DNA from: Candidatus [Bacteroides] periocalifornicus | Lineage (GTDB): Bacteria; Bacteroidota; Bacteroidia; Bacteroidales; CAJPTX01 | Assembly: GCA_001421095.1 (NCBI GenBank) | Contig: LIIK01000008.1 | Span: 2,791 to 66,790 of the forward strand | DNA: 64,000 bases | Reading direction: 5' to 3' | Part shown: piece after piece, positions 20,002 to 62,700 of the stretch | Position numbering within the stretch: position 1 is the first letter of the stretch | How the letters are laid out: each line of letters opens with the position of its first letter | Program-made: the position numbers and the translations under genes | The notes under the pieces: generated by a model | The model's database searches: none | The model's input: the letters and a program-made list of their open reading frames with translations, nothing else | What the model was told of the DNA's origin: nothing

Positions 20002-20045
20002 GCGGGAGCTGTTGGTTACAAGGTAAAAGGATTCTCTGCAAAACC

Positions 20046-20197
20046 AAGACCTCTGCCAAAATCACATGAACGACGCGGCACGCCGTGTCGCTACGGTCTT
20101 CGAGAAATGGAAGTGATTGATTAAAACCTATTTATTTGCAAAAAGAGGAAAGCACTCCTGTAAAAGATTGAACCCATACGGGACTTTTGCAGAGGTC
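20046..20197 (+). repeat. MITE-like 152-bp element (TIRs agacctctgccaaaa / ttttgcagaggtct) carrying one REP-like GTAG-palindrome (20070-20093)
   Basis: Terminal inverted repeats are visible. It is the reverse complement of 27951-28101, with 6 mismatches by hand alignment. Confidence 0.7.
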
Positions 20198-20815
20198 TCA
20201 AACCAGTAAAACGATGCGATACGTTGCTACAATCTTCGTTAGCTGCCCTACCTAGAGGGCATTTTTATTCATAGCCTTTCAGCTTCTGTAAAGCTAGCAC
20301 TAAAAGGCTTGTGGTGCAGCTCGACCATTCAGTTTTGTCCATTACGCCCCATTACGCAATTTTGTCCTTCAAGTGAAAGTGCACGTTACTATCTCGCCCC
20401 ATTTGCGACGCGAAATTACGCACACCGCGATAACTAGAATGGGAATTGCCTCAAGATTATATAATAAGCTTTTAGTCAAGTTGATATAGAGCTCTAAGAG
20501 AGGAAAAATACGCATGTCATGGGAGCTGTTGCGCGCGCCGAGCCGTTGCGACGCATTCAGCATTGCGGTTGTGCTTGCTGCGACAGGGATCCTCTTGCCA
20601 TTTCCCTTTTGGACGGTGGGCTGCGAGGGGGCTCTTTGGGGAATTAGGGCTATTTTCAGCATTCTCATTCGCGCTGGTTAGCCGTATCTGATCTGATATT
20701 TTATTCTGATAATCATTACGTTGAGATGTTATTCTTTTTGTTCTGCATTGGGATGTTTGGAGCAGTGTAGGCTAAGGGATTCTTTCGTTGAGGCGTGTCT
20801 TTTCAAAAATCTTAC

Positions 20816-23864: not shown

Positions 23865-23972
23865 TGCCTCTGCAAGATCCACATTTCCACCAATTGCCGA
23901 GCTTTCTATCGCGTTCTTGGTAGGGGTGCCGCTGTAGGGGCTTTACCGCACGCTGCTGTATGCGTTTTATCA

Positions 23973-24170
23973 CGACGCGGCGCGCCGCGTCGCTACGTCC
24001 TTCGGGGAACGGGAGAATAGGTTTTAAACCACCGCATTCCAAAGGGTGACCGCGGCAAAAGGCCCGTATGGGTTCAATCTTTATGGGGCTTTCCCCTTCT
24101 TTCGGGTAAACAGGTTTCAATCACGCAATCCCATTTCTCGAAGACCGTAGCGACGCGGCGTGCCGCGTCG
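23973..24170 (-). repeat. REPIN-like ~200-bp inverted doublet of GTAG-palindrome units
   Basis: cgacgcggcgcgccgcgtcgCTAC at 23973-23996 and GTAGcgacgcggcgtgccgcgtcg at 24147-24170. The arms and centre are homologous to 31149-31348 in reverse complement. Confidence 0.8.
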
Positions 24171-24322
24171 TTTACGTAGGCGATGTAGGGTCTTTTGATG
24201 GACATCGATTTTGTGGACTCGGTAGGGGCGGTGCTGTAGGGGCGGGCCGCGAGTTGCCCGCCCACCCTCGAATGCCCGCCCAAACAGAGCAGCGAGAGTC
24301 CCCGACGGGCTCTCGGGCGTTT

Positions 24323-24346
24323 GTAGCGACGTGGCGTGCCGCGTCG
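24323..24346 (+). repeat. GTAG-palindrome box, 'T-variant' (GTAGCGACGTGGCGTGCCGCGTCG), followed by a degenerate 20-22-nt tandem array to ~24440
   Basis: Read directly from the sequence. Lies 209 nt upstream of the ATG at 24532. Confidence 0.7.
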
Positions 24347-24531
24347 CGATTCCAAATGAGCCGCGTTGCGGTTATTAATGCCGCATCACAGTTCTTATAA
24401 TGCCGCGTCGCGATTCTAAGCGTGCCGCATCATTTACATGGCTGTGTAGGAATAAAATCGGTTGTCGGGCGTTTTTCTATTGAGTTGCCTGGGGGTGCGG
24501 TTTTTGTGCATAATCAAATAGAATGTGACTC

Positions 24532-27937: not shown

Positions 27938-27950
27938 GTGCGCGGTGTGA

Positions 27951-28101
27951 GACATCTGCAAAAGGCCCGTATGGTTTTAATCTTTTACAGGAGGGCTTTC
28001 CTCTTCTTGCAAATAAATAGGTTTTAATCAATCACTTCCATTTCTCGAAGACCGTAGCGACACGGCGTGCCGCGTCGTTCATGTGATTTTGGCAGAGGTC
28101 T
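27951..28101 (-). repeat. MITE-like 151-bp element, inverted copy of 20046-20197
   Basis: TIRs agacatctgcaaaa / ttttggcagaggtct. GTAG-palindrome at 28054-28077. About 96% identical to the 20-kb copy by hand alignment. Confidence 0.7.
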
Positions 28102-28605
28102 TGGTGTGGCATTGTTAGGGCGGGTACTCGGGAGGCGGGCAACTCTCGGCCCGCCCCTACAGCTCCGCTCCTACCCAGGACGTAGTAGCCAATCTCGTTA
28201 TTTGATAGAAATGCGGTTCTCTGCAGCAAAGCACACGTAAGCGAAGCGGCGCGCTTAAAATTGCGAAGCGGCAGATTTAATATCACGACGCGGCACGCCA
28301 CGTCGCTACAAATACGGACCCGTCCCTACAGCATCTCCCCTGCCAAGATCCCCAAGGTAGGGATGGATATCCAATGCATGGGAGCACTGCAACCCATAGA
28401 AAGATGCGGCGCGCTGCGTCTTTTAAACGGGTTTTGCAGAGGTCTTTGTGTATAGTCTGGCCTGTCGCTCCCCCTGCGCGCATCTACGCCTATCTTGCGG
28501 GGGTATTTAGGGGCAGGCCGAAAGTTGCCAGCCCACCCCGTTCCTGCGCGTACCCTTCCACCATCCCATCTGCCCTTTCGTCCTACCAACCTCGTACCAA
28601 CCTCC

Positions 28606-30939: not shown

Positions 30940-31495
30940 AGCGCCTTGCATTGGGGGCAGCATCGCTACCAACCCCGAGTCCCCGTTTGGGAGGGCACGC
31001 GGCATTGTTAGGGCGGGCACTTTGGGGTGGGCCGGCGCATGCGGGGTAGGCGGGCACTCGCTACGCTCGGCACCGCCCCTACCAAGAACGCGATGGCAAA
31101 TCTCGACAATTGATAGAAATGGGATTCTCCGCTGCGAAACCTTATAAACGACGCGGCACGCCGCGTCGCTACCTTCTTCGAGAAATGGGATTGCTTGATT
31201 GAAACCCGTTTACCCGTAAGAGAGGGAAAGCCTCCATAAAGATTGAACCCATACGGGTCTTTTGCAGCGGTCTCCCTTTTGGAATCCGGCGGTTTGAAAC
31301 CTATTCTCCCGTTCCCCAAAGGACGTAGCGACGCGGCGTGCCGCATCGTTTAATTACAGGTGCGGCGTTTTTGCCCTGGCGGGGGCGCGCCGCCCCCGAG
31401 GCTGGGCGTGGGCTGCTCTTTCCCCTTTTTGCGTTGGGATGGTACAGCGCGGAATTTTGCGAGAGGTCTTAATCCTTGGTATTCTCATGTAGAAT
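30940..31495. repeat. Intergenic repeat mosaic
   Basis: G-module (31005-31085), a complete REPIN-like doublet, and a ttttgcgagaggtct end motif. Confidence 0.7.
31149..31348 (+). repeat. REPIN-like ~200-bp inverted doublet
   Basis: cgacgcggcacgccgcgtcgCTAC at 31149-31172 and GTAGcgacgcggcgtgccgcatcg at 31325-31348, with a conserved centre aaagattgaacccatacgggtcttttgcagcggtct. Confidence 0.8.
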
Positions 31496-32570: not shown

Positions 32571-32929
32571 TCGGCGCGCCTCCTGCTGGGATCATCGGCG
32601 AGCGTTGCTATTGCGATCTGGGTAGGGGAGGTGCCGAGCGCAGCGAGTGCCCTCCCTAATGCATCGTGGCGTGCCGCGTCGCGGTTACATTAATGTTGCG
32701 TCGCAATTATTAATGCCGCATCGCAATTCTACGCGTGCCGCGTCGTTTATGTGGTTTTTGCCGAGGTCTTGGATGGTATGCGCGGGGAGGAGATGGGCGG
32801 GGGAATCTTCGCGTTGCGAAGACCCCGCCCCTACAGTCGGCATTGCGAGGAGATCGTTGCGGGGTATGCCGCACCGACCATCGTGTACGCCCACATAGGC
32901 ATCAACGGGAGCGGCGAATGGGCGGATAA

Positions 32930-33132
32930 CGACGCGGCACGCCGCATCGCTACGTCCTCCGGGAAACGGGGAAATAGGATTTAAACCATCGTATTCCAAA
33001 AGGGGACTCCTCTGCAAAAGGCCTGTAGGGGTCAATCTTTTTTAAAGGATTCTTTCCCTTCTTGCGCGTAAATAGGTTTCAATCAGGCAATTCCATTTCT
33101 CGAAGACCGTAGCGACGCGGCGTGCCGCGTCG
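32930..33132 (-). repeat. REPIN-like ~200-bp inverted doublet
   Basis: Cores at 32930-32953 (…CTAC) and 33109-33132 (GTAG…). Confidence 0.8.
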
Positions 33133-33318
33133 GTTATAAAAACCGTGGGTTTCTATGGGTGGCGCGGAATGCGCATGGAGGCGGCGGCAATGGCAACATG
33201 TGGCTCGCAATGCGACACGCAATGGTATCCCCGCAAACGCCGACTGTAGGGTGCGGGGTCTTCGCGGTCCGCGCGAAGATTTCCCCGCCCGTTGTCACCA
33301 TGCGCCGCTGCGGCGTTT

Positions 33319-33342
33319 GTAGCGACGTGGCGTGCCGCGTCG
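33319..33342 (+). repeat. GTAG-palindrome box, T-variant
   Basis: GTAGCGACGTGGCGTGCCGCGTCG, 142 nt upstream of the ATG at 33461. Confidence 0.7.
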
Positions 33343-33408
33343 CAATTCTTAGCATCCTGCCGGTAGCGGCGTTCATTTTTTCTATTTCGCCATTTCTTTC
33401 GAAATGTC

Positions 33409-38515: not shown

Positions 38516-38700
38516 GGATGGTGCTCACAGGTGGGGGGCTTTGGACGGCGAAGCCCCCTCTACGGTCGGCGTTGCGGGGTATGCCGCTTGACTAACATTC
38601 TACGCCCATGCGGGGATGCCATGCGCGTATATCGCCAACCAATCCGTGAGTTTTCTAAGTTGATGCGATGATCAATGGAAACGGCGTGAAGGCGAGTCAA

Positions 38701-38899
38701 CGACGCGGCACGCCGCGTCGCTACGTCCTTCGGAGAACGGGAGAATCGGTTTTAAACCGCCGTATTCCAAAAGGGGACCGCGGCGAAAGGCCGTAGGGGG
38801 TCAATCTTTCTGGGGAGATTTTCCCTTCTTGCGCGTAAATCGGCTTCAATCATGCAATTCCATTTCTCGAAGAGCGTAGCGACGCGGCGTGCCGCGTCG
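38701..38899 (-). repeat. REPIN-like doublet, copy 1 of tandem trio
   Basis: Cores at 38701-38724 and 38876-38899. Confidence 0.8.
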
Positions 38900-39061
38900 T
38901 TTATGGGAGGTTTGCAGAGGTCTTGGATGGTATGCGCGGAGGCGATGGGCGGGGGAATCTTCGCGCTGCGAAGCCCCCTCTACGGTCGGCGTTGCGGGGT
39001 ATCTCTATTGGCCAACATTTACGTCACAGCGGAAATCAACGGGAACGCCATGGGCGGATAA

Positions 39062-39256
39062 TGACGCGGCACGCCGCGTCGCTACGTCCTTCGGGAAACG
39101 TGAGGATAGGATTTAACCGCCGTATTCCAAAAGGGAGGCCGCGGCAAAAGGCCTGTAGGGGTTCAATTTTTTATGGGGGGCCTTCTTGTTGGTAAAGACC
39201 TTTTAATCATGCAATCCCATTTCTCGAAGAGCGTAGCGACGCGGCGTGCCGCGTCG
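39062..39256 (-). repeat. REPIN-like doublet, copy 2 of tandem trio
   Basis: Cores at 39062-39085 (tgacgcggc variant) and 39233-39256. Confidence 0.8.
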
Positions 39257-39305
39257 TTGTAAAAACCGTAAGGTCTCCTTAGGTGGGAGCCATAAAGGCG
39301 GATAA

Positions 39306-39496
39306 CGATGCGGCACGCCGCGTCGCTACGTCCTTCGGGAATCGGGAGAATAGGTTTTAAACCTCCGCATTCCAAAAGAGGGACCGCGGCGAAAGGCCTA
39401 TGTGGTCAATCAATTTTTAAAGGGGGCTTTGGTAAACAGTTTTTAATCACGCAATTCCATTTCTCGAAGAGCGTAGCGACGCGGCGTGCCGCGTCG
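39306..39496 (-). repeat. REPIN-like doublet, copy 3 of tandem trio
   Basis: Cores at 39306-39329 (cgatgcggc variant) and 39473-39496. Confidence 0.8.
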
Positions 39497-40128
39497 TTTT
39501 GTGTGGGCGCTACAGAGAATCCCATTTCTATCAATTAACGAGATTTGCTATCTCGTTCTTGGTAGGGGCGGTGCTGTAGGGGCGGGTCGAGAGTTGCCCG
39601 CCCACCCCCGAGTACCCTCCCTAACAGTGCCGTGTCGGTTATAAAAACCGTGGCTCTCCATGCGTGGCATGGTATGCGCATGAAGGCGGCGGCAATGGCG
39701 ACATGTGGATCGCAATGCGACACGCAATGGCCTCCCCGCAAACGCCGACTGTAGGGTGCGTGGTCTTCGCAACGCGAAGATTCCCCCGCCCACCGTCTCC
39801 GCCGCGCAAATCCTCCCCGTCCGCCCCATCCACCATACGCGGTTACGGGAGGCCTGCGCGAGGGGCATCAAGAATCGCCCGCAGGCCTGTGCCCACGGGA
39901 TATGCGGGCTATTCCCCATCTCGGGAGTACCTAGCGCACTACCTTCGCGGCGTGGAATCGAGAGATTCCTCTTGCCTGCACCCTAAATCAGGACGCACAA
40001 TCAATCTACCGTAATAACCAACCAAAACCATACCGACATGGCCAATGCAATTCCCCACAAGCTCCGCTACCAGGACTGCCCCCACCCTCTTCCTGGAGTG
40101 CGACCGCCTGCTGGTGTAAGCTGCGTTA

Positions 40129-47597: not shown

Positions 47598-47838
47598 GGA
47601 TTGTTGGCAGCTTGCCCCCATCGGGTTACCGGTGGGGGCCGTTGTCATGGTTTTGCTGTAGAATGGGGTGCGCTCGGGAAGAGTGGGCATTTTGCCCCAT
47701 ATTATGATGCGCACGCAGAGAGCATGCAATTTTGTCCCCATGCAGCTTAGTAGCGACATGGAGGCTCGTGTTGCGATTTGGCTTTTCAGCATTCTCATTA
47801 CCATACAGTTCAGCAATTTTAATGGGATTTTTTAGCCG

Positions 47839-50800
47839 ATGAGATTTATCAAAACGATCTTTAGCCTTCTGCTTCTCGCGGCCTGCTGGGGAGGGGAGAC
47901 CCTTGGGCAGAAGGTGAACTACCTCTACGCTGGGCATGATTCTACCGTGCTAGAGGTGGAATTTCCCTCTGTGCGCCTTGAACCCGTTGAGGTTCAGGGG
48001 CAGCGAAGCCTATTGCCCTATATGCCAGAGGGGATCTATAGGCAGGAGGCGGGTGATCCGGATTTGCCCAACTACGCCCTGCCGATGCTTATGCAGCCTG
48101 GGCAAACGGCTAGCGTTCGCATACTCTCTATGGAGCTGGACACCGTGCCGGGCGTACTGATTGCGCCTTCTAGAGGTATGCTAATACGGACTGTAGACCC
48201 TAGCACGGTGGTTAGAATCTTTGGCCCTAGCTATACGAACGATGGACTGTTCCCTACCCAGAGCGTAGAATTTGCCGCCCCCTATTGGCAGGGTACCAAC
48301 TACGGGCGGAGTTTGCAGCTCTACCCCTTGCAGTACAATCCGGTGAAGCGGTAGCTCTTGGTTGCTAAAAGGATGCGGTTGGCTATTAGGGGTCTGGTAG
48401 ATCCTAGCGAATTGTTCCCAGAGGAAGTACGGGCAGCAGCGAACTATTCGAATATCTATCCAGCACTCTCTAAACTCCCGAAAGTCAGAGGTCAGAAGGT
48501 TGATCCCCAATACGAACTGATGGTGGTAGTGCCTGAGAGATACCGAGCCGCCATACAGCCTTTGGTGCTGTGGAAACGGCAGAGAGGGCTAGCTGTGAGC
48601 ATCTGCAACTACGGCAAGGTGAATGGGGGCAGATAGTAAAGAGCCCCTCTACCCTGAAGCAGTATATCCAGACGAGGTACGAGGCCTCCAGCTCGCGGCT
48701 ACGCTACGTGCTGCTTGTGGGTGGACGGGAGGATATTCCACCGTTTACGAGGACGGGGATCTCAGACCTAAGCTCTGGCGTACCCAATTCCGATAGCGAT
48801 GTGGCCTACGGGCAGCTGCCAGGGCCAGACGGGAGGGAAGACCATGTGAATGAGGTTTACGTGGGGAGATTCTCGGTGCGTGGGATTCCAGAGCTAGAGT
48901 CCATGGTGAAGAAGGTTATAACCTACGAACGCGATCTGGATGCCAGCGATACGTGGCTATCCAATGGCCTTTCGATAGCCAGCAATGAGGGGACGAATGC
49001 GGGCGATAACGACGAAACTGATAGAGAGCACAGCCGGCTTATCCGCCAACATATGCTCTCGGGCGGTTACCAGCAGGTGGATACGCTTTTCGACTTGCCA
49101 CGCCGTTCGGTGAAACCACAGGATGTTTTTGAGACTATCAACAGCGGGGTGGGGGTGATAACCTATATAGGGCATGGCGATGTGCGTTACTGGCAAACCT
49201 CTGGATTCACCGTTGGCCATATAGAGCAACAGCTTAGGAACACTAGGGCTTGGCCTTTTATATTCGATGTAGCCTGCCTAAACGGTAAGATGGCAGAGGG
49301 ACCCTGTTTTGCCGAGGCGTTCGCCAGGGCTAGCCGCGATGGTGAGCCTACGGGCGCATTGGCCATAAACGGAAGTAGCGATAACCAACCGTGAGCACCA
49401 CCCATGGCAGCCCAGGACGCTATGGTTGACTACCTTACAGGGTTTAGCCCTACCGATGGCATGCTAGAGCAGGAGCAACTCTCCTATGGTATGCTGGTAG
49501 CGCGGTCTGTGCAGGTGATGCTGGGCAAATACACGGGGCGGTACGGTGCAGTCACAGCCGATACGTGGAATACGTTTGGCGACCCCTCGGTGTATCTTCG
49601 CACGCAACCGCCTATCCCCATGCGGGCAGAGCTTACTAGAACCGTAAGGATGGGCGATACGCTGCTCAGTGTGCAGTGAGACACGGAGGGGGCACTCGCT
49701 GTGCTTACCTTTGAGCGTACAGGTGAAGATACAGCCTACCTTAGGGCGGTGGTAGACGGAGGACTGGCGCAGTTTCGGGTGAAAGCAATTAAAAAATCAG
49801 ATCGGCTTACACTTACGGTTACAGCGCCCAATAGGCAAACGGTGGTTAGCACGCTCAATGTGGAAGAGGCCAATGCTTTCAGCCTTCGTTCAGTGGTGTG
49901 AAGCTAAAGACTGCTGTAGGGGAAGAGGGAATCTCAATGAAGGGTGGCGATAGTCGAGAGCTTTCGGGCGAGTTGTGCAGCTCGGGATCTGCATTGCCCA
50001 GTGGGTCAGTATCGTTGGAGTGTGTATTGGAACCGAGTACCTTGGGAACGGTAGCTGTGGAGCTGCCCGATGTGAAGGTTGCTGCTTTAGGGCAGTGTAC
50101 GGGTAGGCAAAATCTGGCCAAGGTCACGCTGAAGGCGGAGATACCAGAGGGTACACAGGGTACTCTGCGGCTTAAGGCTAAGGTGGGCGATGTGGTGGTG
50201 GGTGACTATAGCCAGCTCTTCCGAATGGGGACGTGGCGTATGGTAATAGACAGCCTCTCCATTGCAGCGAGTTCAAACGGTGGTAGCGTGCTGGTACCAG
50301 GCGAAAAGCTCACGCTTCAGGTGGCATTGAGGAATGTAGGGGGGCTCGATGTGGAGAATTACCAGCTGATGCTTTCCTACCCAGATTTTCCAGAATTCAC
50401 CCCAAAAGAGTTCAAGCGCACATTGCTCCCTGTTGGAGCAAAGAGCTGATTCCGTCTAGATGTACAGCTGCCAGAGCAAGCCAAGAACAGAAACTTCACG
50501 GTGCTTCGGGCAACGGTCCTGGTGGCGGGCAAAGAGGTGACCGTTACCGAGCTCCCCATCCCGCTTAAAGAGCGTTACATCGCGCAAGCCCTCTTTACGG
50601 GTTACCCACTTGCGAATGGGGATGCTAAGTACCAGAAAACAAGGATTATTATACCCCGTGAAACATTTAAGGCTGGGCAGTATACGGGGATTAGAATCCC
50701 GGTGTACGCTTACGGTTTGCAACAGCAGGGTGCGTGGAACGCCACGGCAACACTAGAACCTACGCTGGCTACCACCATGTCTGATTTGCCCAAAAGCGTA

Positions 50801-51791
50801 CTGGATACGACCACTTGGCCTAGTGCTACCCTGCCCGTAACCTACGATTCGGCCTCCCATTCGCTCGTTCTGCCTACCAATGTTGTGAAGATGTCGGGCG
50901 ATAAGAACCTCCTGCTTACCATCTACTACCGCGGTGGTCAGCAGCAGGGGTATGGGGTAAAGCCCGCCCAAAAGGGGTACGGCATGGTGGATGTAGCCCA
51001 ATTGCATGGTGGAGGGGACGCCGAGGTCTATAATCCGGTATTCCCCCCCCCGCGCAGAGCTGATAGAGGCTAGGAGGGCGAAGGTCACTCTCGCCTTTCA
51101 CCCGGTAGACGGAGGTAAGCCCGAGGCTCTACGGGTGCGATTCAATGGCGAACTCCTCGCAGTCAACCAGCAGGCTACAGCATATGCCAATGTGCTTGAG
51201 GGGGACTATACCCTACAGTTCAGCACAGACAATTACCTCGATAGCACGGTGGCAGTGAGCGTTCGGGGGACGGAGTCCTCCCATGCAATACCGCTCCTAG
51301 CACCACACGCTGCGCCAGTAACCATCTGGGTTACCAACAAGCAGGGGGCAAGCCTAGATGGCGCCGCGGCAGAGGTGGGAGGAGTAACAGCGCAACCAGA
51401 TGATGATGGTGTATTCCATTTTAGCTTTAGGCCAGGGATATACCCCCTTGCAGTTAGTGCGCCAGGATTCTCGGCCATGAATTACGATATTGTGGTTACG
51501 AAGTCAGGGTTCAACGGTAAATACGCTCTTTCGGCAGATCTTAGTCCAGTAGATGAACCCGAGGGTATACGTCTACACCCCAATCCGGCCGGTTCGTACC
51601 TAGAGATGCAGCTTCCAGAGGGCGTGGAACGATTGCAGGTGCTGGCTTCTACTGGAGTTGAGATGCTTGAGGTGCAGGTTAGCGAGCAAAAGGTCAGGAT
51701 AGATGTGCGCGCCCTTCCAGCAGGGGGCTATATTGTTAGGGCTGTAGGGAAGGGGAGGGCGCCCGTATTGGCACGCTTTGTTAAGCTGTAG
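47839..51791 (+). pseudogene. Gingipain-family (peptidase C25) T9SS protease gene, disrupted by 4 in-frame stops and 3 frameshifts
   Basis: Eight consecutive ORF fragments reconstruct one ~1300-aa protein. It has a signal peptide and propeptide, a C25 catalytic region (ITYIGHGDVRYW, IFDVACLNGKM), Ig-like domains and a T9SS CTD (HPNPAGSYLEMQL...GGYIVRAVG...ARFVKL). In-frame stops: TAG at 48352-48354, TGA at 49392-49394, TGA at 49677-49679, TGA at 50447-50449. Frame changes occur near 48625-48629 (G5), about 49880-49900, and 51043-51051 (C9). Confidence 0.85.
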
Positions 51792-51820
51792 GTGATTTTG
51801 CGGGTAAGATAGGTAAGATA

Positions 51821-53796: not shown

Positions 53797-54675
53797 ATGC
53801 ACAAGTCAGGTTTTGTCAGCATTCTCGGGAATCCCAACGTTGGGAAATCCACACTTATGAATCGTCTGGTAGGCGAGCGGCTGTCCATAGTCACCAGCAA
53901 GGCGCAGACTACCCGCCATCGAATTTTTGGCATTGTCGATACCCCAGACTACCAGATTGTTTACTCCGACACCCCAGGTATATTGGCGCCAGCCTACGAG
54001 CTACAGCGCACCATGCTGAAGGCGGTGGAGCAGACCCTGGAGGATTCCGATTTCCTGCTCTACATAACCGACGTGGTGGAGAATCCGGCCAAGCACGCCG
54101 AGTTTTTCGCCACCATAGCCAAGAGTCCCATCCCAAAGCTGGTGCTTATCAATAAGATCGATCTTACCGATCAGCATACGCTAGAGGGACTCGTTGCCCA
54201 GTGGGCAGAGAGGTTGCCCGGGGCTGAGGTGCTCCCCATATCGGCCCTGCATAGCTTTGGCGTGGAGCTTATCCAGCCGAAGATCATTTCGCTCCTACCC
54301 GAGGGTGAAAAGTACTTCCCCCCCGATACGCTGACCGACAGACCAGTGCGTTTCTTCGTTACGGAGATCATCCGAGAGAAGATCCTGCTCTACACCCATC
54401 AGGAGGTGCCCTACTCGGTAGAGATCTCGGTGAGCGACTACCGCGAAGAGCGTGGTATCGACCGTATAGAGGCGGTGATATACGTTGCCCGCGATTCACA
54501 GCGGGGCATCCTCATCGGGCACGGGGGGCGCATGCTCAAGCGCATTGGCATAGAGGCCCGCAAGGATCTGGAGCGATTCCTCCAGAAGCACGTCTACCTT
54601 GGCCTCACGGTTCAGGTGGCCGATAACTGGCGCGACGACCCAGACCAGCTCAAGCGATTCGGGTATACGGAGTAG
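53797..54675 (+). CDS. era: GTPase Era
   Basis: G1 GNPNVGKST, G3 DTPG, G4 NKID, and a C-terminal KH domain (IYVARDSQRGILIGHGGRMLKRIG). Confidence 0.9.
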   Translation: MHKSGFVSILGNPNVGKSTLMNRLVGERLSIVTSKAQTTRHRIFGIVDTPDYQIVYSDTPGILAPAYELQRTMLKAVEQTLEDSDFLLYITDVVENPAKHAEFFATIAKSPIPKLVLINKIDLTDQHTLEGLVAQWAERLPGAEVLPISALHSFGVELIQPKIISLLPEGEKYFPPDTLTDRPVRFFVTEIIREKILLYTHQEVPYSVEISVSDYREERGIDRIEAVIYVARDSQRGILIGHGGRMLKRIGIEARKDLERFLQKHVYLGLTVQVADNWRDDPDQLKRFGYTE

Positions 54676-54701
54676 GGCGGAATACCGCAAAATCTGATTC
54701 A

Positions 54702-54738
54702 ACGGGCGATGCGAAGAGCATCGTCCGTTTTTTTTTTT
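54702..54738 (+). terminator. Rho-independent terminator
   Basis: 11-bp stem acgggcgatgc/gcatcgtccgt, then T11. Confidence 0.8.
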
Positions 54739-54756
54739 GCAATTTATTGATGTCTG

Positions 54757-54832
54757 GTAAAACTTAATGGGGGTTACGAAATCTCCTAAGAATATAGTCA
54801 AAATCTTCAAAAATAGGCTTATAAAGGCCTAA
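54757..54832 (+). repeat. Left arm of ~76-81-bp imperfect inverted repeat bounding the 5.7-kb cassette
   Basis: gtaaaactta..ggggttacgaaatctcctaagaatatagtcaaaatcttcaaaaataggcttataaaggcctaa is the reverse complement (with a few mismatches and indels) of 60421-60501. Confidence 0.8.
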
Positions 54833-55233
54833 CAAGCAAGAAATACCCAGATAATAGCAATTTGTATAATCTGTCTAAAAGATTGCCTCTGTATTAAAAT
54901 TGGCTATAACTATAAGATTTTTATCTATTTGCAGTAATCGTATGTATTTTTAGCGGACAGCAATAAAAAAAGATTGAACCCATTACGAAACTTTTGCAGG
55001 GGGGCATCGTGCCAAATTTCGCTCTGGTATAGACTGGGAGGTGTTGATGGTATGTTATTTCACGGCTCGTTGCCCTCCTTAGTAAGGACGCGGTGTAACC
55101 CAACCCCAAGGGAGGCCCCAAACCGAACAAAGAAAGCAAAAGATATCAACGCCAATTGACTCTGAAATCTTGCACGCCGGGATTTGAATCACTACCTAGT
55201 TGTGGCGTGCCTGTAGAACGGTTATGATCCACT

Positions 55234-56256
55234 TCACATTTCTTCGCTCCACTGCATACATTCCGGGTTATAATGGCATTTATAGGGTTTATCTGTAAGG
55301 TTTTCCAGAAAGGCTCTACAGTCATTGCAAAGATATCTGAACTCGCACAATTTACATACTGAAACACGATCTGTGTTGATCATTCCTAAGGATTGGAATT
55401 TTTCATTACTCACAATATCTACTAACTGAACGTCATTCTGATCTATATTACCGTAGTAGCGAGGAATACAGGGACAATTCATTACATCCCCTTCTGATGA
55501 TATGAAGAGTTTCTTGTACAAGCAGCTGTTATATAACTTATTGAACATATAGGAGTGTACAGTCTTCAATCTGTAAAGAGTTCTCCTATTTATCACTCCA
55601 CAGTCTCTGGGAGATGAAAAACATTGCTCTGAATAAAGTATGAATCCTATCGATTGGGATGTGAATTCTGTTTTGATCTTCTTATAATAATTCTTTTCTT
55701 GGTTAAATACTATCATCGATAGCATCGGATATTTTTCTAGGAAAGAAATTGCTTCGTCTACATGATTCCAATTCGGCTGGCAGATTATTAGTTCGATTGA
55801 TAGCCATTCATGCTGTAAAAATGGCTGTAGCGTCTTGTCGACTTCTGCAAGCGATACAGGAAGGAAATATCGAAACTGAAGATGCTGGCAATTCAACTTT
55901 GCGAGTTGTGCCGCAATATAATCATATCTATGCGCATGCTTCTCAATATCTATACATGCGATTTCTATTAGGCACGGAGAGCAGTATATCTCCTCGATTT
56001 TTCTAAATCCAGTAATATCCTCCACTAGAACTCCAAGCCGGTAACGTAAGATAAAGTCGATAAATTGCTGTATGAATTCATGCCATTCCTCTCCCCATTT
56101 GGAAAAAATACACTCAATAGTTTCGGTAGAGAATTGCTCCTGCAAACCACACGGCAAATTTGGGATATAGAGGAGTTCTTCCCTTTTGAAATCAAGCACG
56201 AGCGTTCTTTTCGCTCCCTTGGTGAAAAAAACGTCTGGGAAAATAAGTAGATACAT
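55234..56256 (-). CDS. SPASM-domain peptide maturase ('grasp-with-spasm' type), no canonical radical-SAM CX3CX2C motif
   Basis: The C-terminal Cys pattern fits SPASM: C-x10-G-x4-C (CLYKKLFISSEGDVMNC), then CKLCEFRYLCNDC, then YKCHYNPEC. The N-terminal half has only CSPCLIEIAC (C-x2-C-x5-C). AT-rich codon usage. Confidence 0.75.
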   Translation of the reverse strand: MYLLIFPDVFFTKGAKRTLVLDFKREELLYIPNLPCGLQEQFSTETIECIFSKWGEEWHEFIQQFIDFILRYRLGVLVEDITGFRKIEEIYCSPCLIEIACIDIEKHAHRYDYIAAQLAKLNCQHLQFRYFLPVSLAEVDKTLQPFLQHEWLSIELIICQPNWNHVDEAISFLEKYPMLSMIVFNQEKNYYKKIKTEFTSQSIGFILYSEQCFSSPRDCGVINRRTLYRLKTVHSYMFNKLYNSCLYKKLFISSEGDVMNCPCIPRYYGNIDQNDVQLVDIVSNEKFQSLGMINTDRVSVCKLCEFRYLCNDCRAFLENLTDKPYKCHYNPECMQWSEEM

Positions 56257-56459
56257 TATCCGTCATCTTCATTTTTTGTAGTAAATCCATATATTGTAAC
56301 GGATTTCCAACGATCACATAGGCTGTATTGACTATAGCCATGATATTTCTGGGAAAACGAGAAATTCTTTTTCTCAGAAATTAAATGCTCAGAATCAGCC
56401 TCCCATTCTTTTAGCTCTAAGCTTCGGAAAAAGAGCGGAAATGTTTCTTCTTGTGCCAT
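56256..56459 (-). CDS. 67-aa ORF translationally coupled between the ATP-grasp and SPASM genes (function unknown)
   Basis: Its ATG lies 4 nt after the ATP-grasp stop, and its TAA overlaps the SPASM ATG by 1 nt (TAATG). Acidic C-terminus (KNEDDG). Confidence 0.5.
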   Translation of the reverse strand: MAQEETFPLFFRSLELKEWEADSEHLISEKKNFSFSQKYHGYSQYSLCDRWKSVTIYGFTTKNEDDG

Positions 56460-56463
56460 AGTC

Positions 56464-57444
56464 TTACAGTAAGGACGCTAATTCTTTCTCTAGGTAGTAG
56501 TTGCAGGCTGTACCATAGGCCGTAAATTGCCCCACTGGGTTCACTTCGAGAAATACGTAAGCACCGTTCGAATCTACTACCAAATCAATAGCCCCGAATT
56601 GCAAATCCAAGAGTCGCATCAAATGGGAAAGCTTCTGAGCGATTGAATCGGGAAGTCTATAAGGAACAATGCGAAGATCCTTTGGCTGGCAACGTCTTCC
56701 ATCAATGGTTGCCCCTTCAAGTTCCTGCGTGAATAGGGCCACCGCATAGCAACGTCCAGCTATATAGATTACGCGAAGCTCAAATCGCTTTTCAATTTTT
56801 TCTTGAAAAAGCGCATGGGGAAAAGTATCTGGTATTGAGGACAGATCTTCCTCCGTCACCAGTGAAGTGTATGATATATAAGCGCTAGATTTTTGAACAT
56901 CGTAAACCCCTTCATACATTGGCTTTACGATCATATCCCCTTTCTGCTTAATCAAATCTTTCAACTCGCTTTTCTTGTTTATGATATAAGTCGCTGGCGT
57001 TTTAAGCCCAATGTTTCTAGCTATTACAAGTACACTTAGCTTATTCAGCTCGCGTTTTTCGTATTCGCAGAGTTTAAAGCTTGCCTGCTTTTGAATCTGC
57101 TCAAAAATAAAAGCCCGATAAACGAGAAACTCGGTTTTTAGGAATTCCTTATAATGATCGATTTTGTAGGCTTCACATTTGTCATGCGGAAGATCTGCAT
57201 GTGCCGTGGCTGGAGGTAGTGCTAGGTTGATTCCACATTTTCGATACCAAAAGCTCGTGATTTCTGAGATGTCAATATCCCTCGCACAGTAGATAGATCG
57301 GGCGCTCAGCTTCCCATTTGAGTATTTGAAATGAATATCATGACAATCCCCATTGAACCGGAAATAGTTTTTTCCCCAGAAGTAAAGCCAATCAATCACC
57401 CTAGAGGTGGCGAAATCATCTAATCGCGAGGATATAGCTATCAT
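56464..57444 (-). CDS. ATP-grasp peptide maturase (graspetide/'grasp-with-spasm' type)
   Basis: MIAISSRLDDFATSRVIDWL N-terminal pre-ATP-grasp region. Later VKPMYEG, FELRVIYIAGRCYAVA and YVFLEVNPVGQF. The track start at 57573 adds 43 codons and is less likely. Confidence 0.8.
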   Translation of the reverse strand: MIAISSRLDDFATSRVIDWLYFWGKNYFRFNGDCHDIHFKYSNGKLSARSIYCARDIDISEITSFWYRKCGINLALPPATAHADLPHDKCEAYKIDHYKEFLKTEFLVYRAFIFEQIQKQASFKLCEYEKRELNKLSVLVIARNIGLKTPATYIINKKSELKDLIKQKGDMIVKPMYEGVYDVQKSSAYISYTSLVTEEDLSSIPDTFPHALFQEKIEKRFELRVIYIAGRCYAVALFTQELEGATIDGRRCQPKDLRIVPYRLPDSIAQKLSHLMRLLDLQFGAIDLVVDSNGAYVFLEVNPVGQFTAYGTACNYYLEKELASLL

Positions 57445-57602
57445 AAGTACAAAAAAAATTAAAATAGAGAGTTCCACCCGTGAGTAAGTAGAACCCTCTA
57501 TCAAACTAAACCGCTTCTTGTAGCTATCGTATGGGATAAACGACGAGTTACAGCCTCTAACAAATACATACAAAACCTACAGAAGTGCGTACCAAACTGA
57601 TC

Positions 57603-57788
57603 TTACTTCAAGTCAGTCAGTTTTTCTGTATCAGCATCGCTATCTACATCCTTACCGCTGGCCTCGCTGCACTGCATCCCTGAAGACAACGTAAAGGAAA
57701 GATGCCAATCCCATTCCTTACCACCAAGAAGTTCTTCTTGCATGCTCTGTGGAATTTCAAAATCCACATTGAAATTCTTAACATCCAT
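57603..57788 (-). CDS. Candidate RiPP precursor peptide (61 aa) with double-glycine leader
   Basis: MDVKNFNVDFEIPQSMQEELLGG | KEWDWHLSFTLSSGMQCSEASGKDVDSDADTEKLTDLK. Verified ATG at 57788-57786 and TAA at 57605-57603. It is the only AT-rich part of the 181-aa track ORF and lies 158 nt upstream of the ATP-grasp gene. Confidence 0.65.
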   Translation of the reverse strand: MDVKNFNVDFEIPQSMQEELLGGKEWDWHLSFTLSSGMQCSEASGKDVDSDADTEKLTDLK

Positions 57789-57829
57789 GATCGTAAGTAT
57801 TTTGTGAAACAATATGAACACAACATCTA

Positions 57830-60133
57830 CTACAATCGCTGTACCTCGTCGGATACCTCGTTTGGTTTCTTCGTAGTTTTCATACCCCATCGGTACTGCA
57901 CTGAGAGGAAGACGCCGCGAATCCCACCCCGCGAAAAGCTGTCCCGCTGGATTCCGTTGGTCTCCAGGAGGATGTTCTCGTAGGCCGTATTGAACATATC
58001 GTCGGCTATTAGCTGAGTTACGAGCTGCCCCCCGAGCCAGCTCTTCGATATGCGCCCATCTGCATTGATGTAGCCCTTCGTCACCCCGGTGGCATAGCTC
58101 CCACCGTGCACGTGGGAGCGTACCCCAAGAGTTAGGTTCCATCCCCACCCTACTGCGTACCGTACTCGCAGCGAGTAGGCCACGAAGGGGTGGGTGTAGC
58201 GTTGGCCATTGTAGCGCAGATCCTGGAGCTGCACGCCAACCTGCCCGTTTATGGAGAGATGCCAGATCTTCGGGCTGAAGGCGAGCGCGGTGAAGTACTG
58301 GTTGTGGTCTGGCAGATTCATGGGGGCGACCAGCACTATGGCCTGGGCATCGTCATGCAGCCGCGCCACCTCAAAGACACGTGCGTAGACCCTGCTGTAG
58401 GAGACCTCCCACGATAGCCACCCGTAGGAGAGGTTGCATGCGACCTCGCGCAGCCGGCTGGTGCGCAGATTGGGGTTGCCATCCCAGCGGAGATACCGAT
58501 TGTTCATGAAGTGGTTCGAGGAGAGCTGTTCGTAGGAGGGTCTATCCACCATCTCCCTGTACGCCAGCTCGAGAGCCAGATTATCAGACTCGTAGCCCAG
58601 GGTGACCACAGGGAGAAGATCGAGCGACCTGCGGCTCTGCCCGGGCTGTAGCACCCTGTCTGCGTAGTACCGATAATCCACGTACTCCGCCCCGAGCTGC
58701 CCTTGGAGCCTCCACTGCTCGCCCAGCGTGTAGGTGCAGCCCACGTAGCCCCCTAGGCGATCTTGCCGGAACTGATCGGAGGCGAGCTGCGCGCGGCTAT
58801 ACTCCCCTTCACGAGCTGTGCGTGCGTAGTCTGCCCCTAGGGAAAGTTCAAAATCGCCTAGTTTGTGGGAGAAATCCCCCTTGGCAAAGAGAAGGCGGGC
58901 GCGCGATACGGTACGGTAGGCATCTGGCACCCCGCCTGTCCCGTAGAGGATCGCCCGCTCCGATTCAGCTCCCGTCCAGTAGTAGCTGCCCGTGATAGCT
59001 GCGGTTGTCCGCTCAGTCTGGAAATCGTAACCGCCCCCCACGGTGTAGCCCTGATTTTTATCTAGGGTTTCGCTCCGGAAGGGCTGCTCTTCCCTTGTGG
59101 TTGAACCAGAGCGCGGGCGTAACTGGTGCGAGAAATCACCCGCTATCACAGTTCGTTTCCTACGGCTCGGCTGGGCATCTACATACAGGTTGAGCGTATG
59201 GCTACTGCTCAGATGGTAGAACAGCTTGGCGCCACCCGATAGCTCACGATTTTGTCGACGGCGATTCGCAAGCAGACGATTATCCACCGTACCCCGCGAG
59301 GTGCCGTAGTGGAACACCTCCTCATCGTGCAGGCGGTTGGTATTCTCAAATTCGTGAATCCCGAGAAGGATATCGAGCCGGGACAGGCTAAGGAAACCGC
59401 TTGCATCCGCAGTATTCGTCCAACCGTTACGCAGTCCGAATTTGTCGTAGAGGTCGAACCCGATATATTCGCTCCGCTTACGGTAGGTGTTGATGATGAT
59501 GGCCGAGCCTACATTTACCCCGTACCGACCTGAGGGGTTCGTGGTGATCTCCACATTGCGAATCTGTGACGATTTCACGCGCGCAAGTTCGTTGGCATCC
59601 TGCACTTCCCGACCGTCTATGAATATGGCTGGCGTGCCATGCCCGAAGATGGACACCGCACCGTCTGTAACCTCCACCCGGGGCATTTCACGTAGCACAT
59701 CGAGCAGCGTGCCGACTGCCTCCAGCTGAGTCCCCTGGATCTTCACCGTGGTGAGGTTGGCCTTCCGCTCGATGCGTTCCGCATCGCCCCGGACTACCAC
59801 CCGCTCGATCTCCTGCACTGGAGAGTCGGCCACTACGATGCCAAGGTCAGTATCGCCTATCACGTTCACTGATATCTCTTGCAGATTCTGCCCGAGGTAG
59901 GTGAACCGTAGCCCGTAGTGACCCACGGAAACCGTGCCCGCCATGTGGCCTTGCGCATCGGTCCAGTACACTGCAGCGTGCCTCTGCTCCCCCTCGGGGG
60001 TGAATATGCAGGTAACATCGGGCAGCGGCCTACCTGTGCTATCCTGCAGCGTGAGGCTTACTCTAGCCACTTGGGCAACAGCCGGGGACACGGCAAGCAG
60101 TGACGCAACAAATACGGCTATCAATCTTTTCAT
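57830..60133 (-). CDS. Outer-membrane beta-barrel protein (CarboxypepD_reg-like + plug-like + OMP_b-brl_3/TonB-dependent-receptor-like barrel)
   Basis: Signal peptide MKRLIAVFVASLLAVSPAVAQ. N-terminal VSLTLQDSTGRPLPDV. Plug-like FGHGTPAIFIDGREV. Alternating beta-strand pattern ending in LSVQYRWG. Confidence 0.75.
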   Translation of the reverse strand: MKRLIAVFVASLLAVSPAVAQVARVSLTLQDSTGRPLPDVTCIFTPEGEQRHAAVYWTDAQGHMAGTVSVGHYGLRFTYLGQNLQEISVNVIGDTDLGIVVADSPVQEIERVVVRGDAERIERKANLTTVKIQGTQLEAVGTLLDVLREMPRVEVTDGAVSIFGHGTPAIFIDGREVQDANELARVKSSQIRNVEITTNPSGRYGVNVGSAIIINTYRKRSEYIGFDLYDKFGLRNGWTNTADASGFLSLSRLDILLGIHEFENTNRLHDEEVFHYGTSRGTVDNRLLANRRRQNRELSGGAKLFYHLSSSHTLNLYVDAQPSRRKRTVIAGDFSHQLRPRSGSTTREEQPFRSETLDKNQGYTVGGGYDFQTERTTAAITGSYYWTGAESERAILYGTGGVPDAYRTVSRARLLFAKGDFSHKLGDFELSLGADYARTAREGEYSRAQLASDQFRQDRLGGYVGCTYTLGEQWRLQGQLGAEYVDYRYYADRVLQPGQSRRSLDLLPVVTLGYESDNLALELAYREMVDRPSYEQLSSNHFMNNRYLRWDGNPNLRTSRLREVACNLSYGWLSWEVSYSRVYARVFEVARLHDDAQAIVLVAPMNLPDHNQYFTALAFSPKIWHLSINGQVGVQLQDLRYNGQRYTHPFVAYSLRVRYAVGWGWNLTLGVRSHVHGGSYATGVTKGYINADGRISKSWLGGQLVTQLIADDMFNTAYENILLETNGIQRDSFSRGGIRGVFLSVQYRWGMKTTKKPNEVSDEVQRL

Positions 60134-60420
60134 ACCACCAAGTTATAAACTATTTTTGGTTCAATAGCAAGCGTAGAGTCCAAAAAATATTTATTATACT
60201 ATACTGTGCTAATCATCAACCGTTTAGCGATGAAAAAAAGAGAATAACCCATGCGACCCGGCTCGAAGATCGCCCAGAAAATTATTATTGCTGACCAGTA
60301 AAAATACATTACAATTACTACAAATGACTGATAATCTTATAGTTATAGTCAAATTTAATGCAGGAGTTTACCTTTTAGACGGGTTATGCCAACTGCTATT
60401 ATCAGGGTGTTTTTCGCCTG

Positions 60421-60501
60421 TTAGACCTTATATAAGCCTATATTTTGAAGTTATTGACTATATTCCTAGGAGATTTCGTAACCCCATCAAGTAAGTTTTA
60501 C
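60421..60501 (-). repeat. Right arm of the inverted repeat bounding the cassette
   Basis: ttagaccttatataagcctatattttgaagttattgactatattcctaggagatttcgtaaccccatcaagtaagttttac. Confidence 0.8.
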
Positions 60502-60517
60502 TGGATAGCAATAATAG

Positions 60518-61546
60518 GCAATAGATTACGAGACGGGTGAACGGAGTTTCGGCTCAGTGGCAGTGGGCAATAATCTGGAGTATACTGACGATGGGATTAA
60601 GAACATAGCGGCCTCCCCCGCCTTATTTGCCAGCGTGGGGCTTTGGAGCAACTACACCCATGCCACCTACACGCACAGCTGGCGGCAGCTCTACTACATG
60701 GGTTCTGTGGGGCTACAGGGCCTAGCGGTCAATGCTACGAGTAAGCGGCATGACTACTGGCGGCCACGGGTAGCCGTGAGCCTTACATGGCGGTTGCCCC
60801 ACAGGCAGTCGGTACGCGGGAGCTACTACCTCACCAATCAGCTCCCGGAGAGCCGGAATCTGGTGACCTTCAACCAGTCGACCAACCCGTGGTTTCGCGA
60901 AGAGGGCAATCCCTACCTCGTCCCCATCCAGAGCCATCGTTTCAGCCTGAACTATGAGTGCGGGTTGGGCGATTTTCAGCTTCGCCTGCAGGTACGCCAT
61001 AACCGCAACAGCCAGATGATAGAGCCCTACCTGAGGCAAGAGGGAGCGGTGCAGGTCCAGTCGTACCGAAACAATGGCACTACGCTAGGCACCCATGCGG
61101 GGCTTGGGCTGAACTACCGAGGCGAGAGCATAATGGTATCGCTTACCTCTGAGTACTCGTGGGTGGCCTACAATGGGCAGCGGCCCAAGGGCTATGTGGG
61201 GGTAAGGGGCTTCCTCCGTTGGGATTTTGGCGACTTTTTCATGTACACCACCCTTGCCTGGCAGAACCAGAGCTACACGGCCATAGGCAGTACCGAATAC
61301 CCAGCCCCCCTAGAAGCCCACGTACAGATAGCTTGGCAGGCCACCAAGCGGCTCTACCTGGCACTGGCGCTGCCCTACTACTGGGGGGTGCGGAGCGAGA
61401 TAACGCGGATCGGGCAGGCAGACTACACGAGCTACCAGCGCACCTACTACCAGGGGGCCAGCTTTCGCCCTTGGGTGCTGGTGGCCTGGACGCTGCGTAG
61501 GAACGCCGAGCAGGCCATAGAGAACCGGATGCCCGAGCCGCTGTAG
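60518..61546 (+). pseudogene. 5'-truncated outer-membrane beta-barrel (OMP_b-brl_3-like) gene remnant
   Basis: The open frame starts right after a TAG at 60515, about 17 nt from the inverted-repeat arm, where GC content jumps. It encodes only the C-terminal ~340 aa of a barrel (NPWFREEGNPYLVP..., ends ...RPWVLVAWTL) with no signal, plug or N-terminal domain. Confidence 0.6.
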
Positions 61547-61630: not shown

Positions 61631-61715
61631 GGAGGAATGGCAGAGCGGTCGAATGCGGCGGTCTTGAAAACCGTTGTACCGCGAGGTACCGGGGGTTCGA
61701 ATCCCTCTTCCTCCG
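61631..61715 (+). tRNA. tRNA-Ser (TGA anticodon), class II with long variable arm
   Basis: Hand-folded: acceptor ggaggaa/ttcctcc, anticodon arm gcggt-ctTGAaa-accgt, variable arm gtacc-gcga-ggtac, T arm ggggg-ttcgaat-ccctc. Confidence 0.85.
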
Positions 61716-61765
61716 CGGAGGATTCCCGGGCGTGAACTGCTGGGGGAATCTGGGGGAATTCCCAA

Positions 61766-61899: not shown

Positions 61900-62700
61900 T
61901 GGGGTGGGGAGCGCAGCAATGGGGGATGGCTCTCGTTGAGTTCGGCACTTCCTCTACCCAGATCTGCATAATCACCGCTTTGCACCAGATTCTTGCAGAA
62001 AAAGGGGAATTCCCGGCGCATTAATGGAGGGAGAGAACATGGGCACCCCTCCCTTCCCCCCTCTTCGTCCCTCCTCCCCGGTCGTACCATCCCCGTACCT
62101 GCGCCGTACCAACCTCGTACCTGCGTCGCTACATCCTCGGGTTTCGCCTAAGGCGAAATCCGAACTTGAAGCGACGGATGTGTCTGGTTGGTAGGAGGTT
62201 GGTATAAAGAAGGTGCGGAGGTGGTAGAATGCGCAAAAAGGGGGATGCCCTAGAGCATTTTCAGGGCTCGGTACGCTTGGCTTCTTACAGTGAGAGCGCA
62301 CTGCAAAACTCACATAAACGATGCGGCGTGGGCAGGTCGGGCACTCGTAGGTGGTCGGCCAACCGATACGCGCCCCTGCAGCACTGCCCCTACCACGATC
62401 TGAAAACAGGGGTGGCGCTCCAATGCGTCGGGGCTCGCCAACCCTTTATAAGAACGCCGTGGAACGCTTATATCACGCCACGGCACGCTGTGTAGCTACA
62501 GTCTTCGGTAATTTGAATTGCGTAACTAAAACCGATTTACCAGCAAGAAGGGGAAATGTAAAAGCTTGGGTACATACGGGACTTTTGCAGAGGTCTCGCG
62601 CGAACCCTCCATCCTGGGGCAGCCCGCACGCGGTTTCATCGTTAGGTGTGTAGAATCGCGCTGCCCTCTGCGATATGTCGAGGCGTTTGTAGTGGCGTGA
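61900..62700. repeat. Intergenic repeat mosaic (degenerate long-hairpin element ~62090-62205; degenerate MITE-like unit ~62470-62596)
   Basis: cgggtttcgcctaaggcgaaatccg, flanked by gtaccaacc repeats and ggttggta...gaaggtgcgg as at 28.6 kb. Also ...gggacttttgcagaggtct. Confidence 0.6.

Follow-up and report, generated by a model that had tools for sequence, protein, structure and literature searches.

Among described systems in which two copies of a small element bracket a longer piece of DNA, those closest to the locus described here are IMU, the TIME-COMPs and the integron flanked by NFM2-MITE copies, in which two copies of a transposable element of the miniature inverted-repeat type (MITE), each ~200 to 450 bp long, bounded by terminal inverted repeats (TIRs) and lacking a transposase, enclose several kilobases (PMC13367494, PMC3184786, PMC4133298). 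These composites move as a whole, as has been inferred or shown; their copies are nearly identical, and direct repeats of 5 to 6 bp lie outside the outermost inverted repeats (IRs). For the TIME-COMPs, transposition as a unit has been deduced from direct repeats that surround the outermost IRs (PMC13367494). A second group comprises the products of intramolecular transposition, among them the inversion case of IS26 acting in trans (PMC13367494) and inside-end events of composite transposons, and a third comprises the invertons and outer membrane protein (OMP) shufflons of the Bacteroidales. We compared with these systems a 64,000-nt stretch of Candidatus [Bacteroides] periocalifornicus (contig LIIK01000008.1, positions 2,791 to 66,790; here, the window), in which two inverted-repeat arms downstream of era bracket a 5.7-kb segment that holds an operon for a ribosomally synthesized and posttranslationally modified peptide (RiPP) and an OMP gene.

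The locus resembled each of these systems in part. As in the MITE composites, two transposase-less, TIR-bounded copies of a small element bracket several kilobases, with a comparable size range and AT-richness; the window copies are in inverted orientation. As in the products of intramolecular transposition, inverted copies flank an inverted segment, adjacent DNA has been lost and an ordinary target-site duplication (TSD) is absent. As in invertons and shufflons, IRs flank a segment with an OMP gene, and a 5'-truncated paralogue faces that segment. Our analysis indicated that the arms are two copies of a MITE and that these copies probably lie at the breakpoints of a lineage-specific, old and fixed inversion-plus-deletion beside a foreign RiPP island.

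The arms are two complete copies of a MITE-like element

An inverted-repeat search combined with MAFFT alignments delimited a left arm of 225 nt and a right arm of 234 nt (Table 1), with an identity of 79.9% over 234 columns, 9 of which were gap columns. The repeat search of the window returned five colinear inverted-repeat pieces (54737-54969 versus 60282-60521). The window contained the 19-mer GGGGTTACGAAATCTCCTA at exactly two places, one per strand, while shuffled sequences gave an expectation of 0. A sequence-only reading of this DNA, made without database searches, had described arms of ~76 to 81 bp. The inverted repeat was real, and the identical blocks listed by that reading were found in place (for example, 54770-54812 versus 60443-60485, 43 nt with 93% complementarity), but the length had been understated; the ~76-nt core, for which ~90% identity had been claimed, is the best-conserved stretch of the arms, at 89%. 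Its placement of the arms was also correct, as the left arm begins 2 to 3 nt past the era terminator and the right arm stops 2 to 5 nt before the onset of homology of the flanking truncated OMP gene at 60518-60521. The MITE-like fragment that it had noticed at the left end, here delimited to 54968-55003, was assigned to another MITE family of the window. Overall, the observation of an inverted repeat was confirmed and extended, while the interpretation attached to it was partly supported.

TIRs of ~20 nt bound each arm separately, so that both arms represent complete copies of a single small element; this accounts for both ending at the same inner limit. All four termini in the window aligned to TTATTG.T..C..GTAAAA, a motif that was absent from the rest of the window. 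A third copy, of 212 nt, was detected at another site in L025 (16897-17108), a conspecific metagenomic contig whose Era allele is 98% identical to that of the window. This copy had the same TIRs, was 68 to 72% identical to the window copies and was bracketed on both sides by a perfect 8-bp direct repeat, TTTTTATC, which is a transposition footprint. The arms have a size within the ~50 to 500 bp of MITEs and no transposase gene, TIRs were present on every copy, and a TSD was present on the third copy only. These results indicated that the arms are two complete, oppositely oriented and diverged copies (copies L and R) of a MITE-like element of ~212 to 234 bp that is AT-rich and encodes no transposase. 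The element defines a previously undescribed MITE family with the TIR TTATTGCTGTCC.GTAAAA and an 8-bp TSD.

The sequence-only reading had proposed a search for further arm copies as a check. Full copies so far number three, at three sites in two lineages, together with a partial relative in another species; exact scans of public collections with the 19-mer returned only the window locus and one locus of that other species (L001/L018). Because the third copy carries a 12-nt deletion within the 19-mer, such scans undercount the family. Arm-like DNA was not detected in plasmid records, in viral contigs or at the equivalent loci of relatives.

The partial relative, in another oral Bacteroidia species, provided a lead to the parent of the element. 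Only the outer 68-nt module of the arms was shared with L001/L018, at 83% identity. There the module follows the T-run of a terminator, directly after which the element begins with TTATTG, and is located ~76 nt upstream of the N terminus of a degraded ISAs1-type transposase (PF13808, 39.6 bits with a cut-off of 32.3). The parent transposase may hence belong to the ISAs1 family, which we regard as a lead and not as a finding; TSDs of this family are ~8 to 10 bp long and would fit the 8-bp duplication. The idea that the arms are the left end of an ISAs1 insertion sequence with an inward transposase start was rejected, as there was no DNA similarity to L001 past the module and no PF13808 signal in the arms. 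A complete insertion sequence with arm-type ends was not found, and there was no ISAs1 transposase in the window.

Assemblies tended to break at the arms. An N-gap was present inside the left arm in L015 (3841-3888), and the L021 contig starts at the outer edge of the left arm. An apparent insertion at 54765 in L015 proved to be a scaffold gap of N.

Comparison with an arm-less layout of the locus

The locus was then compared with L025, in which era, OMP_B (the full-length OMP gene of the segment), a full-length OMP_A (the gene that is truncated in the window) and tRNA-Ser follow each other, all co-directional. L025 was colinear with the window up to 54735 and had the same era terminator, followed by GCA; there followed a copy of the other MITE family and then OMP_B in opposite orientation (L025 10097-12546, 95.4% identity), and colinearity resumed from window position 60521 through tRNA-Ser. 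Neither the precursor, ATP-grasp and SPASM genes nor either arm was present at the L025 locus. Downstream of OMP_B, L025 homology stopped 2 nt before the precursor ATG, and an end of the other-family MITE ~240 nt downstream of OMP_B matched 54968-55003 in the orientation expected before an inversion. As OMP_B resides at the same locus in L025, where this locus has no arms, the gene is native, which bears out an earlier remark on the high-GC OMP gene as out of place in the segment.

The L025 version of OMP_A starts with a signal peptide and a CarboxypepD_reg domain and aligned to both halves of relatives from other species, across ..NQYSLS|IDYETGERSFGS.., the cut point in the window. Protein homology of the window OMP_A to L023, L024 and L025 began at 60518-60521, just outside the outer TIR of copy R; the gene is cut where this copy has its outer end. 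L025 is not derivable from the window layout, because it holds sequence that the window has lost, and appears to keep the ancestral layout.

Relative to L025, the window showed inversion of the segment between the two copies, including OMP_B; gain of a 2.8-kb low-GC island (55004-57789) immediately downstream of OMP_B; single MITE copies past the era terminator and within OMP_A; loss of 77 nt next to era; and loss of ~1.66 kb, consisting of the rest of the other-family MITE and approximately the first 425 codons of OMP_A. Flipping the segment back restored colinearity with L025, including a correctly oriented other-family MITE end downstream of OMP_B. The site of the third copy in L025 had no clean empty counterpart in the window.

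A comparison of era-to-tRNA-Ser synteny, which had also been proposed from sequence, was informative in so far as L025 gave the arm-less layout. Relatives at ~75% Era identity were uninformative; the attempt to find an empty site through Era synteny was abandoned there, as the gene order was era-der and synteny was lost. The usual era-der pair was seen in two such relatives (L016 6175-8415 and L017 10001-12211). No der gene was found within 64 kb of era in the species of the window, so that synteny in this lineage breaks immediately downstream of era. Relics of der or of the N-terminal half of the OMP gene were not detected in the window.

The orientation of the segment was surveyed in contigs encoding the exact Era or OMP_B protein of the window, in L014 (a lineage with ~4% divergence) and in contigs recovered with the 19-mer. 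The window and 17 other independent arm-bearing contigs had the same gene order and the same orientation, and the arm-flanked unit was found at the window locus only. In its present state the structure is immobile and fixed, being neither a cassette with movement as a unit nor a phase-variable switch; as a genome rearrangement of an uncultured oral bacterium, it is of an ordinary kind.

Proposed rearrangement and points against it

In the proposed series of events, a foreign low-GC grasp-with-spasm island would have been added next to the native OMP_B in the window lineage, and the two MITE copies would have caused the inversion and the deletions. This could have occurred either by intramolecular transposition with the transposase supplied in trans or by recombination between the inverted copies. 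Two inverted element copies around an inverted segment, with deletion of adjacent DNA and no ordinary TSDs, are the classic product of intramolecular transposition. The window differs from the described products in that the expected reverse-complement target duplications were undetectable, the copies are not nearly identical and the element is non-autonomous. Among the earlier interpretations, that of a scar of an insertion event came closest, with the arms as breakpoints of the inversion-plus-deletion, but the RiPP island (55004-57789) has inner boundaries of its own, apart from the arms.

Several observations weigh against a rearrangement driven by the two copies. The inverted-TSD signature of a one-step replicative inversion was absent at the window copies, and neither copy had a TSD of its own (flank matches of 2/8 and 1/8), although missing TSDs are expected if the copies took part in the rearrangement. 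Among the contigs compared, an intermediate form with arms and an un-inverted segment was not seen. The copies are 20% diverged from each other and near-invariant among lineages, which fits poorly with one having been copied from the other at the inversion, and an arm identity of 80% is low for RecA-mediated inversion. Evidence for the ancestral layout comes from a single metagenomic contig, L025, and its junctions cross other-family MITE repeats. The arms had no above-chance similarity to the L001 element outside the 68-nt module, and a cognate transposase with matching ends was not found, only the decayed ISAs1-type remnant in L001/L018.

Alternative explanations

The MITE copies could have inserted independently as bystanders of rearrangements caused by unrelated mechanisms, or L025 could be misassembled and no inversion have occurred. 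We consider this unlikely. It would be consistent with the lack of TSDs or inverted TSDs at the window copies, with their 20% divergence and with the status of L025 as a single contig; the locus is also rich in the other MITE family, which could itself drive rearrangement. Against it, the only two copies in about 64 kb are inverted and are located within a few bases of both breakpoints, the intact OMP_A N terminus of L025 cannot derive from a window-type genome, and the boundary of the L025 indel falls at the start codon of the precursor gene.

The low diversity of the arms raised the question of a function. In the region 54730-55002 (the left copy with the adjoining MITE fragment), 1 single-nucleotide polymorphism was present in 17 sequences, and in 60368-60535 (the outer ~150 nt of the right copy with the junction) there were 4 singletons in 13 sequences; the inner third of the right copy was variable, and DNA neighbouring the arms was 3 to 17% diverged among lineages. 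The first diversity result was biased, as strains had been chosen for identical Era; the pattern persisted with independently found lineages. Invariance of the left arm was rejected as proof of function, because the initial signal was partly due to ascertainment bias and occurrence in the derived haplotype only explains it too. In this simpler reading, arm diversity is low because the arms exist only in the derived haplotype and carry only mutations acquired since its origin, while native genes are more diverse because they can import older variation by recombination with arm-less lineages. The same idea may also explain the third-position-biased polymorphism of truncated OMP_A. In the right arm of L021 (5563-5789), from a lineage with ~5% divergence, the inner third shared several left-arm states that are missing from the window right arm; arm-to-arm identity was 82.8% in L021 and 80.7% in the window, reflecting either ectopic conversion between the copies or derived changes in the window copy.

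It is quite doubtful that both copies have been domesticated, whether as outward-reading paired cis-regulatory elements or small-RNA genes or as complementary 5' and 3' ends of a 5.7-kb operon transcript. If so, one copy would read towards the still-constrained truncated OMP gene and tRNA-Ser and the other towards the era terminator. An origin of the arms as 3'-end relics of a protein-coding gene, or their exaptation as outward promoters or small RNA genes under selection, is very unlikely. In its favour, the right arm has an open frame of 63 to 86 codons in all lineages, with the same peptide broken over two frames in the left arm; near-invariance extends over the entire left arm and the outermost ~150 nt of the right arm, beside more diverged neighbouring DNA; and a promoter-like TTTAGA-17-TATTAT lies, in each copy, at the inner border of the conserved block. 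However, polymorphism in the open frame lacked codon-position bias (8/9/6), in contrast to that of all real genes of the locus, and an amino acid change resulted at 15 of the 17 variable codons. No homologue was found among 1.84 billion representatives and none in Pfam or NCBIfam, the sole HMMER match to the arm ORF being a translated tandem-repeat artefact; with no plasmid match either, a coding relic was rejected. Structured RNA was not indicated, as the arms had no Rfam match and folding energies no better than those of shuffled sequences. Scans for sigma-70-type promoters and terminators gave counts that were not above those of shuffles, with a consensus that is not appropriate for Bacteroidetes, whose promoters differ from it. 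Low diversity is also expected of sequence that exists only in a derived haplotype and is closed to imported variation.

We give little credence to the view that the arms and everything between them are a MITE-bounded composite transposon of the IMU or TIME-COMP type that inserted here as one unit. Two inverted MITE copies do bound a cargo, with outermost IRs present, and the 8 nt outside the symmetric ends, TTTGCAAT and TAGGCAAT, match at 6/8 positions (P of about 0.005 to 0.007 alone and about 0.03 to 0.04 with six tests corrected for); the two copies taken singly have no matching flanks. This match, with its shared GCAAT, was promising at first as a unit-level TSD. Both flank motifs are, however, native in L025, where TTTTGCA follows the era terminator and ..CCATTGATTACGAG.. 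lies inside intact OMP_A. As the outer flanks come from ancestral positions ~4.5 kb apart, the match is not a target duplication, and the native origin of both motifs means that the 5.7 kb did not arrive as one composite transposon. This in turn explains the host-like GC content of OMP_B (52 to 63%), which is not shared by the RiPP genes (34 to 47%; 30 to 47% for RiPP genes and arms together). The 95.4% identity of OMP_B to its arm-less counterpart in L025 is ordinary orthologue divergence. The window structure also differs from MITE composites in its 20% diverged copies, in ends that are not Tn3-type 38-bp IRs and in its content, a RiPP operon and an OMP gene on a Bacteroidia chromosome rather than resistance genes on a plasmid. 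Its cargo includes a site-native gene, its outer flanks derive from two ancestral positions and it has no unit-level TSD; the two hallmarks of such composites, a unit-level TSD and a foreign cargo, are both lacking. Of the earlier suggestion that the arms are ends of a non-autonomous mobile cassette, the part concerning copies of a non-autonomous element holds, given the TIRs and the third copy with its 8-bp TSD, but movement of the 5.7 kb as a unit does not.

Invertons and shufflons of the Bacteroidales have short, well-matched IRs and a dedicated recombinase, and occur in both orientations within populations. A reversible, phase-variable inversion that uses the arms as recombination sites and switches the OMP/RiPP operon or the flanking OMP gene is scarcely credible. 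In its favour, the enclosed segment does have the opposite orientation in L025, flipping would bring the operon onto the strand of era and the truncated OMP gene, and both internal orientations have been described for TIME-COMPs bounded by inverted identical MITEs (PMC13367494). Against it, the window and the 17 arm-bearing contigs have a single orientation, arm identity is only 80% with 9 indel columns, genes within 10 kb to the left and to the right have no recorded recombinase or integrase domain, and no IR is present inside the OMP coding sequences; nor does L025 represent the other phase, since its locus lacks the arms. The defining features of invertons and shufflons are lacking, and of the earlier proposal of a recombinase-invertible segment there remains one evolutionary inversion relative to L025, with no sign of ongoing switching.

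Genes and other features of the locus

Features of the locus are listed in Table 1. As had been stated from sequence, no transposase or integrase was recognised in or near the segment: no transposase, integrase or recombinase domain was found inside it, and no integrase or resolvase Pfam family was recorded for genes within 10 kb on either side.

Table 1. Positions of the MITE copies, genes and other features at the era to tRNA-Ser locus of the window
Feature	Position	Strand	Remarks
era (GTPase Era), native left flank	53797..54675	+	NCBIfam NF000908, 345 bits; colinear with L025 to window 54735
era intrinsic terminator	54701..54740	+	12-bp stem and T-run; flank reads on as TTTTGCA
MITE copy L (left arm)	54743..54967	+	225 nt, 30% GC; nhmmer E = 3.8e-67
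Copy L TIRs	54743-54762 / 54948-54967		20 nt, 85% complementary
Copy L conserved 68-nt module	54769-54836
Terminal fragment of other MITE family	54968..55003	+	Abuts inner end of copy L; 88.6% identical to 20162-20195
RiPP island, low GC, predicted grasp-with-spasm	55004..57789	-	Not in L025
Unassigned DNA in island	55004-55233		230 nt
SPASM maturase	55234-56256	-	TIGR04193, 211.9 bits (cut-off 175)
67-aa ORF	56256-56459	-	Between ATP-grasp and SPASM genes
ATP-grasp maturase	56464-57573	-	TIGR04192, 254.5 bits (cut-off 230)
Putative precursor	57603-57788	-
OMP_B, full-length 767-aa OMP_b-brl_3 barrel	57830..60133	-	PF14905, 113.7 bits; native, inverted relative to L025
OMP_B upstream region	60134..60282	-	Hypervariable among lineages; remnants of other MITE family
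MITE copy R (right arm)	60283..60516	-	234 nt, 32% GC; nhmmer E = 5.8e-67
Copy R TIRs	60283-60303 / 60496-60516		21 nt, 90% complementary
Copy R conserved module	60418-60487
OMP_A, 5'-truncated, 329 aa	60519..61546	+	PF14905; without approximately the first 425 codons, including the signal peptide
tRNA-Ser(UGA), native right flank	61631..61716	+	ARAGORN; colinear with L025

The enclosed operon is predicted to encode a grasp-with-spasm RiPP system, its paired maturases scoring above the equivalog cut-offs, and polymorphism of the island was of the coding type. The putative precursor reads MDVKNFNVDFEIPQSMQEELLGG|KEWDWH.., with a leader motif of the double-glycine type; it had no NCBIfam or Pfam match, and the locus encodes no C39 peptidase or exporter. 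The 67-aa ORF had coding-type polymorphism (4/2/10 by codon position) and no family match, and may be an accessory protein or a second substrate. In L003, L009 and L011, the SPASM maturase or OMP_B was called as 2 to 3 fragments, which suggests partial decay of the operon in the population, or assembly errors.

OMP_A is only a distant paralogue of OMP_B. The OMP_B upstream region was 83% identical to that of L014 and L021, and its proximal 106 nt aligned to L025 10097-10202. A signal peptide is missing from the truncated OMP_A, whose start codon is not kept among strains; the polymorphism of OMP_A was third-position biased (29/16/59), as if the gene were under selection, and this variation may have been imported by recombination from lineages with an intact gene. 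In other, low-GC species, OMP_A homologues were present as two adjacent ORFs (L012 8714-10969, L013 2188-8679 and L023 764-2439), with the same split point in L012 and L013 and a different one in L023. In L013, the operon of the split pair also contains a small ORF rich in NCDVINN-like repeats, a radical SAM/SPASM enzyme and a C39-peptidase ABC exporter; in L012 the pair is followed by a 76-aa C39 fragment only. This arrangement resembles a further RiPP-type cluster that has an OMP of its own.

The other MITE-like family had at least 21 matches in the window, often as nested or inverted pairs, with a palindromic core, GACGCGGCACGCCGCGTCGC, and ends like GAGACCTCTGCAAAAG. Sites included 20037-20204, 23964-24410, 27944-28461, 31070-31353, 32605-33369, 38689-39770 and 62464-62597. 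Fragments were present next to the left arm (54968-55003) and in the OMP_B upstream region; in L025, copies flank OMP_B on both sides. Upstream of era in L002 to L011 (equivalent to ~47800-51800 of the window), gingipain-like Peptidase_C25 genes and an adjacent Por_Secre_tail gene were fragmented in a strain-specific manner, one 605-aa ORF of some strains being present as 3 to 5 pieces in others.

Implications

A long inverted repeat around a gene cluster is, on its own, no evidence of a mobile cassette or a switch, and high-GC "cargo" within such a structure can be native DNA. The MITE family with the TIR TTATTGCTGTCC.GTAAAA would escape annotation pipelines. The locus provides a worked natural example of a small non-autonomous element reshaping a locus in an uncultured oral Bacteroidia species, in which the rearrangement would have flipped a native OMP gene, truncated the paralogue of this gene and left a RiPP operon, acquired horizontally, embedded in the product.

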